This document shows, one piece after another, positions 12,483 through 55,448 of a DNA stretch of 64,000 nt; position 1 is the first letter of the stretch, and every line of letters starts with the position of its first letter. A program made the position numbers and the translations under genes. The notes under the pieces are model-generated. The model did not search any database. It was not told the origin of the DNA and worked only from the letters and a program-made list of their open reading frames with translations. Source of the stretch: a virus; the IMG/VR virus record IMGVR_UViG_3300025598_000021, one strand, 5' to 3'.

Positions 12483-13886
12483 ATGTATCTAGCTGAGGAA
12501 ATTCAAAACAAGTGGGCACCAGTGCTCGACCATGACGCTCTTGGAGAAATCAAAGACGCTCATCGTCGTTCGGTCACTGCCCTTATGCTCGAGAACACTG
12601 AGAATGCTCTTCGCGAGTCAGCAGCTCATGGCAGCTACCAGACTCTAACTGAGACTTCTTCTGCTCTCCCTGCAAACTTCATGGGCTCTTCAAGCTCAAC
12701 TGCTGGTGCAGGCGGTATCGATACTTTCGATCCTGTTCTTATCAGCCTAGTTCGTCGCGCAATGCCTAACCTCATTGCATACGACATCTGCGGCGTTCAG
12801 CCAATGACTGGCCCAACTGGTCTTATCTTTGCTATGCGTTCGCGCTACGCAAACCAGACTGGTGCAAACGGTCTTGCAAACGGTGCAGTTCAAGACAACG
12901 AAACCTTCTACAACGAAGTCAACACTGCGTTCACTGGTCTCGGCGGTCTTACTGGCGTCAATCCAAACACCTACGGTCAGGGCTTCACCGGCACTATCCC
13001 AGGTGCGACTAACACCACACCACTAACTGCCACCAACACCTATAACACTGGTTTTGGTATGTCAACTGCACAGGGCGAAGCTCTCGGCGTTGATTCCGGC
13101 AACACCTTCCCTCAGATGGCTTTCACTATCGAGAAGGTTACTGTTACTGCTAACACTCGCGCCCTAAAGGCAGAGTACACTATGGAACTCGCTCAAGATC
13201 TTAAAGCCATTCACGGCCTAGACGCTGAGACTGAACTCTCCAACATCCTTTCAGCAGAAATTCTTGCTGAAATCAACCGTGAAATCGTTCGCACGATCAA
13301 CATCACTGCAGTTCCTGGTGCTCAGCTGAACACTACTACTGCCGGCGTGTTCGATCTCGACACTGATTCAAACGGTCGTTGGTCGGTTGAGAAGTTCAAA
13401 GGTCTTATGTTCCAGCTCGAAAGAGAAGCTAACCAGATCGCTAAGCAGACTCGTAGAGGGAAAGGTAACATCGTTATCTGTTCTTCGGATGTTGCATCCG
13501 CTCTACAGATGGCCGGCGTTCTCGACTACGCTCCAGCTCTTAACAGCAACAAACTAGAAGTTGACGATACTGGCAACACTTTCGCTGGTGTTCTCAATGG
13601 TCGCCTAAAAGTCTATATCGACCCATACGCTATCGGTGGTAACTACATCACTGTCGGCTATAAGGGTTCTTCGGCTTTCGATGCTGGCCTATTCTACTGC
13701 CCATACGTTCCACTTCAGATGGTTCGTGCAGTTGATCAGTCAACTTTCCAGCCAAAGATTGGCTTCAAGACTCGTTACGGCGTTGTCGCGAATCCTTTCG
13801 CTCAGGGCCTCACTAAGGGTTCTGGTGCACTTGCTATCAGCACTAACGTCTACTATCGTAGAGTTATTGTTAACAACCTTATGTAA
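12483..13886 (+). CDS. gp23: Major capsid protein gp23
   Basis: LVRRAMPNLIAYDICGVQPMTGPTGLIFAMR, ELAQDLKAIHGLDAE, FQPKIGFKTRYG. Confidence 0.98.
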   Translation: MYLAEEIQNKWAPVLDHDALGEIKDAHRRSVTALMLENTENALRESAAHGSYQTLTETSSALPANFMGSSSSTAGAGGIDTFDPVLISLVRRAMPNLIAYDICGVQPMTGPTGLIFAMRSRYANQTGANGLANGAVQDNETFYNEVNTAFTGLGGLTGVNPNTYGQGFTGTIPGATNTTPLTATNTYNTGFGMSTAQGEALGVDSGNTFPQMAFTIEKVTVTANTRALKAEYTMELAQDLKAIHGLDAETELSNILSAEILAEINREIVRTINITAVPGAQLNTTTAGVFDLDTDSNGRWSVEKFKGLMFQLEREANQIAKQTRRGKGNIVICSSDVASALQMAGVLDYAPALNSNKLEVDDTGNTFAGVLNGRLKVYIDPYAIGGNYITVGYKGSSAFDAGLFYCPYVPLQMVRAVDQSTFQPKIGFKTRYGVVANPFAQGLTKGSGALAISTNVYYRRVIVNNLM

Positions 13887-24357: not shown

Positions 24358-24754
24358 ACGTTACTCAGTCCAAGTTCTACAAGAGTGCATAGACCTCCAG
24401 AACAAGAAGTCTAACGACTATCAGAACCCAAACTCTACTATTAAGCAGGCTGACTATTATCCAAATGGTTGTCAGACTATCTTGGATACTATCCAAGCTA
24501 AAGTTCTTCGCATGCGTTCTGTTATGGAAGCTATGCAGTATGATAAGAACTATAAACCAAACTTCGAATCACTTGAAGATTCAGCTAAAGATCTTATCAA
24601 CTACGCTTCTTTCTTTGTGACGTTCTCGCGTGGTAAGATGGAAGGTCAAGATCCTAATCGCGACTTTCTTAATAAACAAAAACAAGTAGTGTCATACACC
24701 AGCCATACTATCACGGTAACAGCTAGTAATGAGGTAGAAGATGCAGGTTGCTAG
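24347..24754 (+). CDS. Nucleotide-modification-associated all-alpha protein (DUF1599-like)
   Basis: KKSNDY..KVLRM..ESLEDSAKDLINYA. Confidence 0.65.
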   Translation: MPHERYSVQVLQECIDLQNKKSNDYQNPNSTIKQADYYPNGCQTILDTIQAKVLRMRSVMEAMQYDKNYKPNFESLEDSAKDLINYASFFVTFSRGKMEGQDPNRDFLNKQKQVVSYTSHTITVTASNEVEDAGC

Positions 24755-25391
24755 AGTCCAAGACATCAGAGAGTACTTCTACGATCAGTTAAAGAAACAA
24801 AACTTTGTAACTGATAAGACTGGTGTTAAGACTATCGAACTCATTGGCGCTAACTTCATTGCCAATGAGCCTACTATCTTTGGAGAAGTAAACGAAGATT
24901 ATATCCGTAAAGAATTGGCTTGGTATAAGTCGATGTCTCTAAACGTTAATGATCTAGAAGACACGCCTGCTATATGGAAGAAAGTAGCAGACGAAGATGG
25001 TTATATCAACTCAAACTACGGCTGGTGTATCTGGTCGCACGATAATCACTATCAATATCATAACGCGTTGAATGAGCTTAATAAGAATCCAGACTCACGC
25101 CGCGCTATCATGATCTATACAAGACCATCGATGTGGCACGACTATGACTATCACGGCATGTCAGATTTTATGTGTACTAACACCGTGCAGTATTTGATCC
25201 GTGATAATAGACTTAACGCTGTAGTTCAGATGAGATCTAACGACGTAGTCTATGGCTATCGCAATGACTACGCTTGGCAGGACTACGTATTAGACAAGAT
25301 GGCAAATGAGTTAAAAGTTGCTCGCGGCGATATTTATTGGAATGTAGGATCTCTTCATGTCTATGAAAGACACTTCGACTTGGTCATCTAA
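24741..25391 (+). CDS. gp42: dCMP hydroxymethylase (T4 gp42 type)
   Basis: INSNYGW, DFMCTNTVQYLIRD, MRSNDVVYGYRND (Asp at the dCMP/dUMP specificity position), GSLHVYERHF. Confidence 0.92.
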   Translation: MQVARVQDIREYFYDQLKKQNFVTDKTGVKTIELIGANFIANEPTIFGEVNEDYIRKELAWYKSMSLNVNDLEDTPAIWKKVADEDGYINSNYGWCIWSHDNHYQYHNALNELNKNPDSRRAIMIYTRPSMWHDYDYHGMSDFMCTNTVQYLIRDNRLNAVVQMRSNDVVYGYRNDYAWQDYVLDKMANELKVARGDIYWNVGSLHVYERHFDLVI

Positions 25392-25833
25392 GTATTTAAA
25401 TCTAGCAAAACACGTAGCGACTTGGTCTAAAGATCCATCCACTAAAATCGGCGCTGTAGCTGTAGGAGAACGCGGCCAGATACTAAGTACTGGCTATAAT
25501 GGTTTTCCTAGAAATATTGAAGACAGACCGGACAGGCTAAACGATAGAGAGTCAAAGTATAAGTACGTAGTTCACGGTGAGATGAACTGCATATATAATG
25601 CGACACTCAATGGTGTGAGTTTAAATGAAGCAGACTTATACGTGTATGGATTGCCTATATGCTCTGAGTGCGCTAAGGGTGTAATACAGGTCGGCATCAA
25701 GCGCGCTTTCATGTGCTATCCTGAGAATACAAGAGACAAGTGGAAAGACTCTTATAAGATTACTTCTGAGATGTTTAATGAAGTCGGAATATATCATGAG
25801 GTCGTGTATGAGAGCGATAGTGGTAGGAATTAA
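25357..25833 (+). CDS. cd: dCMP deaminase
   Basis: WSKDPSTKIGAV, TGYNGFPR, VVHGEMN, PICSEC. Confidence 0.9.
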   Translation: MSMKDTSTWSSKYLNLAKHVATWSKDPSTKIGAVAVGERGQILSTGYNGFPRNIEDRPDRLNDRESKYKYVVHGEMNCIYNATLNGVSLNEADLYVYGLPICSECAKGVIQVGIKRAFMCYPENTRDKWKDSYKITSEMFNEVGIYHEVVYESDSGRN

Positions 25834-26170
25834 TCCTTCTAATCATAAGACTGTCGATAAGCACTGTATTACCATAAAGCGTCTATTCAAATGGATGGAC
25901 GACTTGAATATCAAGTATTTCTCGTTCGTAAACTGTATACCAAGTCCAGGAAGATATAATAAATCTGACATCGACTACGATATGATAGACGTCTGCACGA
26001 GAGACTATAAAGTAGTACTGGCGCTTGGTAACTTTCCATCTGAAGCTTTAAACAAAATTAACGTAAAGCACTTTAAATTGCCACATCCTTCTGGGCTAAA
26101 TAGACAATTAAATGACGTCAAATATGAATTAGACATGTTGAGACAGTGCAGGAACTATATCTATGGCTAA
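25808..26170 (+). CDS. Uracil-DNA-glycosylase-fold protein
   Basis: VVGINPS, LALGN, LPHPSGLNR. Confidence 0.7.
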   Translation: MRAIVVGINPSNHKTVDKHCITIKRLFKWMDDLNIKYFSFVNCIPSPGRYNKSDIDYDMIDVCTRDYKVVLALGNFPSEALNKINVKHFKLPHPSGLNRQLNDVKYELDMLRQCRNYIYG

Positions 26171-33616: not shown

Positions 33617-33692
33617 TTCCCGATAGCTCAGTTGGTAGAGTAGGTGACTGTTAATCACTTGGTCCTTGGTTCGAGTCCAAGTCGGGGAGCCA
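33617..33692 (+). tRNA. tRNA-Asn(GTT)
   Basis: 76-nt cloverleaf; anticodon loop CTGTTAA; TTCGA T-loop; encoded CCA. Confidence 0.95.
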
Positions 33693-34452: not shown

Positions 34453-34528
34453 GCTGCTGTAGCTCAGCTGGCAGAGCAAGGCATTAGTAATGCCTAGGTC
34501 GGGAGTTCGAATCTCTCCAGCAGCACCA
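34453..34528 (+). tRNA. tRNA-Thr(AGT) with A34 anticodon
   Basis: Acceptor GCTGCTG/CAGCAGC, discriminator A, CCA; anticodon arm AGGCA-TTAGTAA-TGCCT; TTCGAAT T-loop. Confidence 0.93.
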
Positions 34529-34546
34529 CTCCTCAAAGGATATATC

Positions 34547-34663
34547 ATGAATGAAGATCTTCTACGCAGGCAGGCAATATTTCGAATGGTCGTGTTCGTT
34601 CTTTTAATGATGACGATTGGTTTTATCGCCGGTGATTTAAACATGCTAGATGGTGGTAATTAA
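34547..34663 (+). CDS. Small membrane peptide (38 aa, absent from the ORF track)
   Basis: AAGGA RBS; MNEDLLRRQAIFRMVVFVLLMMTIGFIAGDLNMLDGGN; TAATG overlap with next gene. Confidence 0.6.
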   Translation: MNEDLLRRQAIFRMVVFVLLMMTIGFIAGDLNMLDGGN

Positions 34664-35454
34664 TGGCGCAGCTGCTGATGTGCAGTCCGGACCTATTTGG
34701 TGTGGACTATGTGATTAACCCATGGATGGAAGATCAAATCGGAAACGTAAATTCTGATAAGGCCTTGTCACAGTGGACAGATCTATATAATGCACTCAGC
34801 AGGGTCGCCGTCGTTAGACTCATAGATCCGGTACCGGGTCTACCGGACATGGTGTTCACCGCCAACGCCGGTCTAGTAGTGAACAACAAGTTTTTTCTCT
34901 CTAGATTTGCGCACAGCCAGAGACAGAAAGAAGAGAAGTATTTTAGAGAATGGTTCCTGAAGAACGGCTGGAACGTAATAGAGCAGGGCAAACACAACTT
35001 CGAGGGTGAGGGAGACTGTCTAAGAGACAAAGAATATCCTTATCAATATATCTCACACGGCTTCAGAACTCGTCAAGAGTTTCACGGCGTGCTTAGTTCT
35101 TTTGATATAGACAACATGCCTCTAAAGCTAGTGGACCCGCGTTTCTATCATCTAGACACGTGTTTCTGCCCGCTGAATAACGGCGAAGTGCTGTATTATC
35201 CAGAAGCCTTCGATGAGAATAGCAGAAAATTTATCACGAATAACTTTGATACTGCTGTAGATGTCACTGAAGAAGAGGCATTGACTTTCTGCTGCAACGC
35301 GGTAGTAGTCGGTGAAAACATATTCATGCCTAAGTGTAAGCCTGTAGCAAATATACTAAGAAACACGCTGAACTATACCGTCCATGAGTTTGACATGTCA
35401 GAATTCATGAAGTCTGGCGGCGCATGTAAGTGCCTGGTACTGCATCTGGACTAA
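34663..35454 (+). CDS. Pentein-family guanidino hydrolase (DDAH/amidinotransferase; arginine dihydrolase-like)
   Basis: VDYVINPWM, PDMVFTANAG, FEGEGD, FYHLDTCFCPL, KSGGACKCL. Confidence 0.9.
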   Translation: MAQLLMCSPDLFGVDYVINPWMEDQIGNVNSDKALSQWTDLYNALSRVAVVRLIDPVPGLPDMVFTANAGLVVNNKFFLSRFAHSQRQKEEKYFREWFLKNGWNVIEQGKHNFEGEGDCLRDKEYPYQYISHGFRTRQEFHGVLSSFDIDNMPLKLVDPRFYHLDTCFCPLNNGEVLYYPEAFDENSRKFITNNFDTAVDVTEEEALTFCCNAVVVGENIFMPKCKPVANILRNTLNYTVHEFDMSEFMKSGGACKCLVLHLD

Positions 35455-35891
35455 TGATTACTTCCAAAGATAAGAAGCATATGGCCTTCGTAAGAAGACT
35501 AGCCATAGATAACGTCGACTCGCAGACTAGAGCAAAACTCGCTGCGTGCATAGTCGTTCGTAACGATATAATATCTATTGGCCAGAATTCTTATAAGTCT
35601 CACCCACTCCAGAAGAGATTCTCAAAGCACATAGAGTCTATATTTAAGCACGCGGAGGTAGACTGTATTATCAACGCTCTTAGACATGTCGATGCCGATA
35701 AGTTGTGTAAAGCTACTCTTTACGTTTATAGAGTTAAAAGACGTTCAAAAGACTCGATTGACTGGGTAGATGGTTACTCTGAGCCGTGTCCCGGCTGTAA
35801 GCAGGCCATAAGTCATTTTAAAATTAAAAAAGTAATATTTTCTACCGACGAGGATAGAAAATTTATTAGTATAAATAGCATATCCACGTGA
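35454..35891 (+). CDS. Zn-dependent nucleoside/nucleic-acid deaminase (CDA/TadA superfamily)
   Basis: HAE and PCPGC zinc motifs, IISIGQN; TAATG-coupled to the upstream gene. Confidence 0.85.
   Translation: MITSKDKKHMAFVRRLAIDNVDSQTRAKLAACIVVRNDIISIGQNSYKSHPLQKRFSKHIESIFKHAEVDCIINALRHVDADKLCKATLYVYRVKRRSKDSIDWVDGYSEPCPGCKQAISHFKIKKVIFSTDEDRKFISINSIST
35870..35877 (+). promoter_or_regulatory. Late promoter
   Basis: TATAAATA upstream of the holin-like gene. Confidence 0.7.
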
Positions 35892-37000: not shown

Positions 37001-37717
37001 ATGAAAACTAAGATAAGCCATTTCTTCGGCAATCAAGAAGATCTAGACTTACAGATTATCAAACTATCGCTTGACCTAGAAACATCAAAAGAATCAGAAG
37101 CCCTTGATAAAGGCTGGCTGGTGTATGATAATGTATGGTATACTTGCAGATCGTCTAGAATAAATGTCGATGAATATATAAATCAGATTAATTCTTCTAG
37201 TTCAAAGAAGAAAGTAAAGAATTACTCTTTTGAATATAAAGATAAGTTTATAATAGATGATTCTGTTCTAAAAGTATATAATAGGTTTTTAGAGATTAAG
37301 AAGTTTAAAAAGTTCTATCCATTAGAAACAGATATGGAAAGAAGTTCTGGGGTATTCGTATATAATAAAGATAAAGAACTAGTGGCATACACCAAGATGG
37401 TAAAGTATGACGGTGGTATCGAGAGTCAATTTACTGTATGGGATTATTCTGAGCCAAAAGCTTCTATAGGCAAATATCTAGTAGACTATGAGATAGAAGC
37501 AACTAGAGCGCTTGGGCATAAATATCTTTATATCGGGCCGGTATATGGAATGAACTCTATCTATAAAATGAACTTTAGCGGGTTCGAATGGTGGGATGGA
37601 GAGAACTGGTCAAAAGATGAGCATGAGTTGTTTAGTATTTTAGAAAGAGATTCTAACATTAATACATTAGAAGAGTTGAGTAATGCATTCATTCAAGATT
37701 CACAAGTATGTAAATGA
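37001..37717 (+). CDS. Aminoacyl-tRNA-protein transferase (ATE1/Bpt family)
   Basis: LDKGW..RSSRI, ELVAY, WDYSEPKASIGKY..EIE..GHKYLYIG..YKMNF. Confidence 0.75.
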   Translation: MKTKISHFFGNQEDLDLQIIKLSLDLETSKESEALDKGWLVYDNVWYTCRSSRINVDEYINQINSSSSKKKVKNYSFEYKDKFIIDDSVLKVYNRFLEIKKFKKFYPLETDMERSSGVFVYNKDKELVAYTKMVKYDGGIESQFTVWDYSEPKASIGKYLVDYEIEATRALGHKYLYIGPVYGMNSIYKMNFSGFEWWDGENWSKDEHELFSILERDSNINTLEELSNAFIQDSQVCK

Positions 37718-49986: not shown

Positions 49987-50063
49987 TGGTACTCCTGACA
50001 GGACTCGAACCTGTAACCGCGCTGTTATGAGCAGCGAGAACTGACCAATTGTTCTACAGGAGT
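49987..50063 (-). tRNA. tRNA with CAT anticodon, probably Ile2 (lysidine) or elongator Met
   Basis: Acceptor ACTCCTG/CAGGAGT plus A-CCA; CGCTG-CTCATAA-CAGCG; C4-G69 and C5-G68 as in TilS substrates. Confidence 0.88.
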
Positions 50064-54755: not shown

Positions 54756-55448
54756 TTATTTCTTCACATCTTTTAATGACGGAAATTCTTTAACTAATTG
54801 ACTCCAAGCGCTACTAGCTACTTCGCGATGTTCTTTCTGAGTTCCTTCTGACATTCTTATATCGCAGTAGTGTATCCAAGATCTAAGCGTGCCATTCATA
54901 TACATTCTAGAAATAGTCAAACCTTCTGGTAATACCGCTCTTGCCTGTTCTTTTGCAATACCGTTTGCTATTGCCCACTTATAGCCAAGAATACATTCGT
55001 GAATCAACTGCTCTTGTTTTACCTTCCAGTCTCTATGTAACTCTTTATCTCCAGTTTCAATAGAATTTTGTCTATTCTTTGTATCTTGCAGACGCGCTTC
55101 TCTAATACCAAAACCTAAATCTGAAGTTGGATCGGCGTAGCGCTGACTGAATTCTTGAAATGTAAATGAGCGATGTCTGAGAATCTGGCGAGCGATGTCG
55201 CGTGTGGTATTTATCTCCATGACTATATTGACCATCTCAAATGGAGACCAGTGCTTATTTTTAACAAGATACTTTAGTAGCTTATCAGCAGTGAGATGGT
55301 TGTTCTGGTTAGACGGGTTAGACACCCTAGCGACGTATGCGACGAACTCATCGACCGTCAGGGCTCTCTGTCTATTGTAGAACCATTTAGAATACTCTGT
55401 CTCATATAACTTAGGCTGTGTAACAGCGACGATCTTAGCGTCATTCAT
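54756..55448 (-). CDS. thyX: Flavin-dependent thymidylate synthase
   Basis: HWSPFE, RQILRHRSFTFQEFSQRY, EQARAVLP, QKEHR. Confidence 0.96.
   Translation of the reverse strand: MNDAKIVAVTQPKLYETEYSKWFYNRQRALTVDEFVAYVARVSNPSNQNNHLTADKLLKYLVKNKHWSPFEMVNIVMEINTTRDIARQILRHRSFTFQEFSQRYADPTSDLGFGIREARLQDTKNRQNSIETGDKELHRDWKVKQEQLIHECILGYKWAIANGIAKEQARAVLPEGLTISRMYMNGTLRSWIHYCDIRMSEGTQKEHREVASSAWSQLVKEFPSLKDVKK

Follow-up and report, generated by a model that had tools for sequence, protein, structure and literature searches.

Does a phage that encodes a threonine tRNA with adenosine at the wobble position also encode the enzyme that would edit this base? The question is raised by a 64,000-nt stretch of DNA (the window) from virus record IMGVR_UViG_3300025598_000021, a freshwater T4-like phage whose full viral contig measures 125.5 kb with a CheckV completeness of 74%. 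On the plus strand of the window, a gene for tRNA-Thr(AGU) (34453–34528) lies upstream of a gene for a zinc deaminase (35454–35891), and a preliminary description of this DNA proposed that the two form a phage wobble-editing pair. Our analysis favors another reading, to which we assign a probability of about 0.55: the tRNA would read ACU codons without the phage deaminase, and the neighboring deaminase would be an independent enzyme acting on pyrimidines.

A threonine tRNA with an encoded A34

The tRNA-Thr gene is 76 nt long with the CCA end encoded. It is called as Thr(agt) by ARAGORN and scores 68.5 bits against Rfam RF00005, for which the gathering score is 29 bits. The anticodon stem is AGGCA/UGCCU and the loop reads U32 U33 A34 G35 U36 A37 A38, with A34 at window base 34486. 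The Thr identity set recognized by E. coli ThrRS consists of G1-C72, C2-G71, G35, and U36. All of these elements are present in the window tRNA, together with A73 and the encoded CCA, and the gene is thus the well-formed tRNA with a TT-AGT-AA loop and Thr identity that had been described.

Contigs from three further freshwater metagenome runs (X6, X7, and X8) span the gene with zero differences, leaving base A34 unchanged in each. Relatives in which the tRNA is linked to the deaminase carry nine distinct Thr(AGT) sequences, whose anticodon stems vary by compensatory changes. Because the three further runs agree and the relatives keep AGT through compensatory stem changes, a sequencing error or a private mutation at A34 was ruled out.

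To place the tRNA in a wider set, IMG/VR was scanned with a pattern consisting of the D-arm and the UUAGUAA loop, which matched at least 117 stretches; 116 loci were scanned, and at least 78 distinct Thr(AGT) sequences were found in at least 116 contigs. In an alignment of 67 AGT tRNAs, in which the search pattern fixed the anticodon and the D-arm and left the acceptor, anticodon, and T stems free, standard pairs fill 97.4% of cells and changes on both sides occur in 16 of 21 pairs. This alignment reaches a covariation score of 0.642, whereas shuffled versions give 0.162 and slid partners no more than 0.109. G1-C72 is kept in 65 and C2-G71 in 66 of the 67 tRNAs. By these criteria, tRNA-Thr(AGU) is evidently a real, selected, and functional phage tRNA.

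Other ANN tRNAs accompany it: among the matches listed for the 116 Thr(AGT) loci, Arg(ACG) occurs 40 times, and non-arginine A34 tRNAs besides Thr(AGT) were also seen among the loci listed (L094–L209), namely Ser(AGA) six times, Leu(AAG) once, and Ile(AAT) once. The nearest tRNA-Thr genes of named phages have TGT or CGT anticodons and none has AGT, and a literature search on Thr-AGT in phages returned nothing useful. A 2026 preprint states that ANN tRNAs of four-fold boxes are absent from bacteriophages (bioRxiv 10.64898/2026.05.15.725136), which is untrue for the phages of IMG/VR.

Late-gene threonine codons follow the phage anticodon

ACT had been judged by eye to be the dominant Thr codon of gp18, gp23, and the fiber genes. 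Genome-wide, ACT is the most frequent Thr codon, with 41% of the total, followed by ACA (21%), ACG (21%), and ACC (16%), at a G+C content of 43%. In the late genes, its share reaches 64% in gp18, 83% in the gp22 scaffold gene, and 80% in the gp23 major capsid gene (12483–13886, plus strand), where it accounts for 37 of the 46 Thr codons.

A complete relative, G001 (168.6 kb), allows this preference to be set against a different anticodon. The sole Thr tRNA of G001 is Thr(TGT), and the core of this tRNA (positions 8–65) has only two differences from the AGT tRNAs of two related loci (L009 and L027), one of which is position 34. Over gp18, gp22, and gp23 together, G001 uses 38 ACT, 21 ACC, 78 ACA, and 10 ACG codons, whereas the window, with AGT only, uses 115, 20, 13, and 11, and a second AGT-only genome, G002, uses 99, 4, 32, and 2, respectively. 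gp23 shows the contrast by itself, with ACT/ACA at 8/29 in G001, 37/1 in the window, and 39/5 in G002. The Ala, Ser, Pro, and Val boxes are unshifted among the three genomes. Because the other codon boxes do not move, the anticodon and the late-gene codon choice co-vary specifically, in what is a single contrast over three genes with one independent TGT-only lineage.

It appears from these alignments and counts that one tRNA body switches between A34 and U34 within the lineage and that the late-gene codons follow, with ACU preferred in one case and ACA in the other. The proposal that the phage supplies a decoder for ACU is supported, as Thr codons follow the phage anticodon across orthologous late genes. 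tRNA-Thr(AGU) would thereby supply a Watson–Crick reader for the dominant Thr codon of those late genes that have the highest expression.

The modification state of A34

In the late genes of the AGT genomes, ACT is used nearly alone, with ACC/(ACC+ACT) at 0.04–0.15 compared with 0.22–0.37 for the Arg CGY box, which is read by I34. This avoidance of ACC bears on two routes by which the tRNA could acquire inosine. One is the proposed wobble-editing pair, in which the 35454 deaminase would deaminate A34 of Thr(AGU), and that of Arg(ACG) where the array is larger, to inosine, so that ACU, ACC, and ACA would be decoded. The near-exclusive use of ACT speaks against this route, and further evidence on it is given in the two sections below.

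The other route, which is the main alternative to an unmodified A34, is editing of the phage tRNA to I34 by host TadA with the phage deaminase uninvolved. TadA specificity requires C35 and G36 in the substrate loop, and the window tRNA has G35 and U36 at these positions, which, like the strong avoidance of ACC in late genes, is hard to reconcile with such editing. It would fit with the occurrence of Thr(AGU) independently of any phage deaminase, and some bacterial TadA do edit beyond tRNA-Arg, e.g., tRNA-Leu(AAG), in some Firmicutes (PMC8266599 and PMC11472039). However, an engineered Thr-tRNA(AGU) was detected in its unmodified form in E. coli, which tolerates and uses it (bioRxiv 10.64898/2026.05.15.725136). 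We consider editing by host TadA unlikely.

Unmodified A34 pairs best with U (PMC11066159). Because E. coli uses Thr-tRNA(AGU) unmodified, A34 pairs best with U, and ACC is low in late genes, A34 of the phage tRNA is probably left unmodified and paired with U. The distribution described below shows that the tRNA does not rely on a deaminase of the phage.

No obligate link between the tRNA and the deaminase

We identified relatives of the 35454 deaminase in 48 IMG/VR loci at 58–79% identity and in one distant locus. Two complete genomes with the family are free of ANN tRNAs. In G001, whole-genome ARAGORN finds Gln UUG, Arg UCU, Asn GUU, Thr UGU, Gly UCC, Met CAU, and Leu UAA only, and in Caulobacter phage Cr30, the closest cultured relative (46% identity), the tRNAs are Asn, Gly, Arg UCU, Pro, and Met only. 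The catalytic motifs of the deaminase are intact in both.

The reverse case was examined by searching ten large Thr(AGT) contigs for PF00383. The CheckV-complete jumbo genomes G007 (412 kb) and G011 (382 kb) gave zero matches, four contigs (G008, G009, G012, and G013) have the classic GYNG/HAExNA dCMP deaminase only, and one holds the 35454 family; the remaining three, which are 25–72% complete, are also without a PF00383 match. The family is found in only 12 of the 116 Thr(AGT) loci listed (median length 10 kb). Thr(AGU) is thus widespread without the family, including in complete genomes that lack a CDA-fold (cytidine deaminase) gene, and the family persists intact where no A34 tRNA exists. 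Distant homologues in the jumbo phages RsoM2USA, Atu_ph07, and Xoo-sp13, the three named phages from which adjacency outside the Cr30-like clade was judged, are surrounded by hypothetical genes, and no tRNA is annotated close to them. All of this counts against the wobble-editing pair. The preliminary description had itself named a deaminase that does not co-occur with ANN tRNAs as an outcome at odds with its proposal, and this is largely what the survey found. Neither gene requires the presence of the other, and the two are most likely independent neighbors.

Their adjacency is explained by synteny, because the tRNA array sits between regA and the deaminase. The conserved gene order is gp45-gp44-gp62-regA, a few small genes, the tRNA array of 1–24 genes, and the deaminase, and the array grows and shrinks in this one slot. 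The deaminase gene would hold a fixed place downstream of gp45-gp44-gp62-regA, and an array of variable size would have grown just upstream of it, giving rise to the adjacency. The distance of about 0.9 kb between the tRNA and the deaminase holds in the window but not in the closest relatives, where the end of tRNA-Thr is 131 nt from the deaminase. The larger spacing in the window is due to the insertion of a gene with a DDAH/arginine dihydrolase-like (guanidino-modifying) fold (34663–35454, plus strand, 263 aa; Pfam DDAH_eukar 4e-15), which scores 285 bits with NCBIfam Arg_dihydro, below the cut-off of 450. Its stop codon overlaps the start codon of the deaminase (TAATG). Among the 48 related loci, the gene occurs in only two (L012:1255–2052 and L013:4986–5783), each time directly upstream of the deaminase.

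A phage-only deaminase family and its proposed substrate

The 35454 gene, which starts at an ATG also used by relatives, encodes a 145-aa protein of the CDA fold (Pfam dCMP_cyt_deam_1, 4.7e-13) with HAE at residues 66–68 and PCPGC at 111–115. As first described, it has the HAE/PCxxC signature and is distinct from the second CDA-fold gene of the window at 25357, to which it has 29% identity over 93 aa. Across 37 members of the family, no variation is seen at H66, A67, E68, P111, C112, or C115. Among 65 diverse members, H66, E68, R93, P111, C112, and C115 are invariant and G43, H50, P51, and G114 nearly so, and the hallmarks of the family are K(S/T)HPLQ at 48–53 and Arg93. At 50% identity, the family comprises 308 clusters at E ≤ 1e-30 and 2665 at E ≤ 1e-10, and the matching ESM Atlas clusters are 94–100% viral. 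The 35454 deaminase is thus one of a large, phage-only, minimal CDA-fold family, of which no representative has been characterized.

Profile searches did not separate TadA from dCMP deaminase for this family. The best PDB profile matches are the dCMP deaminase of cyanophage S-TIM5 (1.7e-8), TadA (2e-7), and guanine/guanosine deaminases, and a single-sequence PDB search gave no significant match. The TadA equivalog NF008113 has a cut-off of 150 bits, of which the window protein attains 14.9, and the best E-value among the 37 members is 2.3e-6. NCBIfam matches to the anti-phage dCTP deaminase were found in 14 and to ComEB in 5 of the 37 members (best 7.7e-7), and phrog_174, annotated as dCMP deaminase, matches the window protein at 1.2e-16. 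At the motif sites of dCMP deaminases, the window protein reads GQNS, HAEVDC, and PCPGCKQA; throughout the members, position +2 from the Glu is occupied by D or N.

The AlphaFold2 (AF2) model of the protein has a pLDDT of 86 and a pTM of 0.82 and contains the CDA core. Only 30 residues follow PCxxC, where strands 126–130 and 137–141 form a β-hairpin. Because six residues separate these strands, helix 4 and a C-terminal helix are absent, and some family members end directly after strand 4. The model thus lacks the elements with which TadA and ADAT2 bind RNA, namely helix 4, strand 5, and the C-terminal helix. In VIA-align, the small deaminase 5jfy is the closest structure (Z 15.5, root-mean-square deviation 2.6, 114 residues aligned), followed by tetrameric cytidine deaminases (Z about 13, 118–122 residues aligned), S-TIM5 dCMP deaminase (Z 13.0), and TadA and ADAT2 (Z 11.2–11.6). 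The top Foldseek match is human dCMP deaminase. A literature search on structure 5JFY yielded nothing useful.

The 35454 family is the sole PF00383 gene in G001–G004 (86–100% complete), all of which encode the flavin-dependent thymidylate synthase ThyX, and the same is true of G010; in other Thr(AGT) phages, ThyX is instead paired with a classic dCMP deaminase. The window also encodes ThyX (54756–55448, minus strand; PF02511, 135 bits), an enzyme that consumes dUMP. The pattern is circumstantial evidence for an enzyme that deaminates a pyrimidine nucleotide or nucleoside and thereby provides dUMP. Tentatively, and at somewhat less than even odds, we propose that the substrate is a pyrimidine nucleotide or nucleoside such as dCMP or deoxycytidine, the product of which would feed dUMP to the phage ThyX.

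Two other views of the enzyme have to be considered. In the first, the 145-aa protein would be a minimal tRNA/RNA adenosine deaminase that dispenses with the C-terminal helices of TadA and edits A34 of the phage Thr(AGU) and Arg(ACG); in phages without an A34 tRNA of their own, it would edit the host tRNA-Arg. T4-like phages would then carry their own wobble-inosine system. The intact HAE/PCxxC site accords with editing of phage tRNAs by this protein, as do the weak TadA profile matches, the basic isoelectric point, and the fact that in 43 of 47 related loci the gene immediately follows the tRNA array on its 3′ side, and the other CDA-fold gene of the window genome could serve nucleotide metabolism in its place. 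The missing C-terminal helices, the lower structural Z to TadA, the low TadA score, the ANN-free genomes that keep the deaminase, and the many Thr(AGU) genomes without it are all contrary to such editing. We judge this view, like the wobble-editing pair, very unlikely, although a host tRNA-Arg(ACG) may serve as a substrate in G001 and Cr30, which have no ANN tRNA of their own.

The second view holds that the deaminase has another nucleic-acid or base substrate, in DNA base modification, modified-nucleoside salvage, or counter-defense, perhaps coupled to the DDAH-like enzyme. A large phage-only family without a characterized member, the K(S/T)HPLQ and R93 motifs that are absent from known families, and the presence of a further deaminase gene, a classic dCMP deaminase in Cr30 and a CDA-fold gene in the window genome, would be in keeping with such a role. 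In a second lineage, a DDAH-like gene of 48% identity again immediately precedes the deaminase, with a 5-nt gap between the two genes of this recurrent pair. However, the DDAH-like partner is rare, being found in 3 of about 48 lineages, and neither informative domain fusions nor a conserved neighbor pointing to a pathway were found: longer family members (166–238 aa) have no additional Pfam domain, and the contigs of four diverse representatives (≤4.6 kb) show no informative neighbors. This view is doubtful, although it ranks above adenosine deamination.

The joint reading, in which the tRNA reads ACU unaided and the deaminase acts independently on pyrimidines, is itself opposed by several observations. 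The codon comparison draws on one independent TGT-only lineage, and the excess of ACT over ACC in late genes is no more than a hint at whether A34 is adenosine or inosine; no RNA run was found to contain the stretch. The family is basic (median isoelectric point 9.2), and close to its active site lies an invariant Arg; both features would also suit RNA binding. By profile, it is equally close to TadA and to dCMP deaminases (both at E-values of 1e-8 to 1e-6); the TadA model is weakly matched by 23 of 37 members, far below the cut-off, and the differences in VIA Z-score are modest. tRNAs lie within 6 kb in 43 of 47 deaminase loci, with an ANN tRNA in 26, and this adjacency is consistent within the lineage. 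Finally, Cr30 has a classic dCMP deaminase and the window genome a second CDA-fold gene besides the 35454 family, and redundancy with dCMP deaminase is for this reason not a clean story.

Other features of the locus and the genome

Across the 125.5-kb contig, ARAGORN finds three tRNAs only, Asn(GTT), Thr(AGT), and Met(CAT). tRNA-Asn(GUU) (33617–33692, plus strand; Rfam 62.7 bits) is the upstream partner that tRNA-Thr has kept in the reduced array, and the Asn-Thr order is the same in L004–L010 and L015. tRNA-Met(CAT) lies apart on the minus strand (49987–50063). The preliminary description had suggested that an A34 decoder might also evade anticodon nucleases. Asn(GUU) and Thr are two of the three tRNA species cut in E. 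coli by the PARIS nuclease AriB. At the AriB cleavage site, the window tRNA-Thr has G40 C41 and most phage Thr(AGU) relatives keep C40 A41; A34 is not among the described AriB determinants. In the slot between the Thr and Gly tRNAs of related arrays, one locus has a tRNA with an 8-nt anticodon loop (L021:5642–5715; ARAGORN "ctcg") and another has a degenerate tRNA-like element with a CAU loop that is below threshold at 26.4 Rfam bits (L018:5641–5705).

Between tRNA-Thr and the DDAH-like gene is a small hydrophobic open reading frame of 38 aa (34548–34663, plus strand), which was read by eye and is too short for recovery by tblastn. Several relatives retain such a hydrophobic reading frame, of about 33–38 aa and with the motif IGFIAGDL, after the last tRNA and ahead of the deaminase (L004:5884–6000 and L018:5727–5828). 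Downstream of the deaminase, an ATE_C/arginyl-transferase-like reading frame (37001–37717; Pfam 5.8e-7) is kept in the seven closest related loci and is the second arginine-related gene within 3 kb; such an enzyme would use aminoacyl-tRNA.

The second CDA-fold deaminase (25357–25833, plus strand; Pfam 6.3e-17) reads HGE and ICSEC at its motif sites instead of HAE and PCxxC. It stands in a row (24741–26170) with a short gene similar to thymidylate synthase (TS)/gp42 and a UDG-like gene, which adjoin it, and this row may be a base-modification module.

Implications

Bacteria seldom have A34 tRNAs other than in the arginine box, yet such tRNAs are common in uncultivated large phages, with at least 116 contigs carrying Thr(AGT). 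What the present case adds is a switch between A34 and U34 that is accompanied by a shift in codon usage. It amounts to a natural experiment in which one A34/U34 change accompanies a switch between ACU and ACA in the capsid, scaffold, and sheath genes, and we regard it as direct genomic evidence of phage tRNAs either shaping or following the choice of codons in late genes. The lineage also offers a tractable system for studying how unmodified A34 decodes. The attractive notion of a phage inosine system is removed as unsupported, and a large phage-only deaminase family is flagged.

Comparison with known systems

Mycoplasma capricolum and some Firmicutes encode tRNA-Thr(AGU) (Andachi 1987 and Inagaki 1995, as cited in bioRxiv 10.64898/2026.05.15.725136). 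The phage tRNA resembles theirs in being of bacterial type, with an encoded A34 that serves a four-fold box in an ACU-favoring genome. Unlike theirs, it is phage-borne in a T4-like array, often stands beside Thr(UGU), and interconverts with U34 on the same body. It also resembles the array tRNAs with which T4-like and T5-like phages compensate for host codon usage, in that it matches the codons of late structural genes and belongs to an array of varying size. It differs from them in its ANN anticodon and in that, among close relatives, the late-gene codons change with the anticodon in an unusually clear way.

A gene annotated as tadA has been described in the tRNA region of Sphingobium phage Lacusarx (PMC5648845). 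The 35454 deaminase shares with TadA and ADAT2 the CDA fold, the HAE...PCxxC zinc site, a weak profile similarity, and neighboring tRNA genes. In contrast to them, it lacks the C-terminal helices, falls far under the TadA cut-off, occurs in genomes without A34 tRNAs, and carries the additional K(S/T)HPLQ and RVK-hairpin insertions. The S-TIM5 dCMP deaminase (PDB 4p9c) is similar in size, is its best PDB profile match (1.7e-8), and aligns at a Z of about 13. As in dCMP deaminases, where the motif is HAExNA, D or N is present at +2 after the catalytic Glu, and the family is the sole CDA-fold gene in the ThyX-encoding relatives; unlike dCMP deaminases, the family has no GYNG, helix 4, or strand 5, and in Cr30 it co-exists with a classic dCMP deaminase. 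Tetrameric cytidine deaminases are a good fold match (Z about 13) and have Cys-Ala-Glu and PCGxCRQ motifs, whereas the 35454 family has HAE, with His as the first zinc ligand, and PCxGC.

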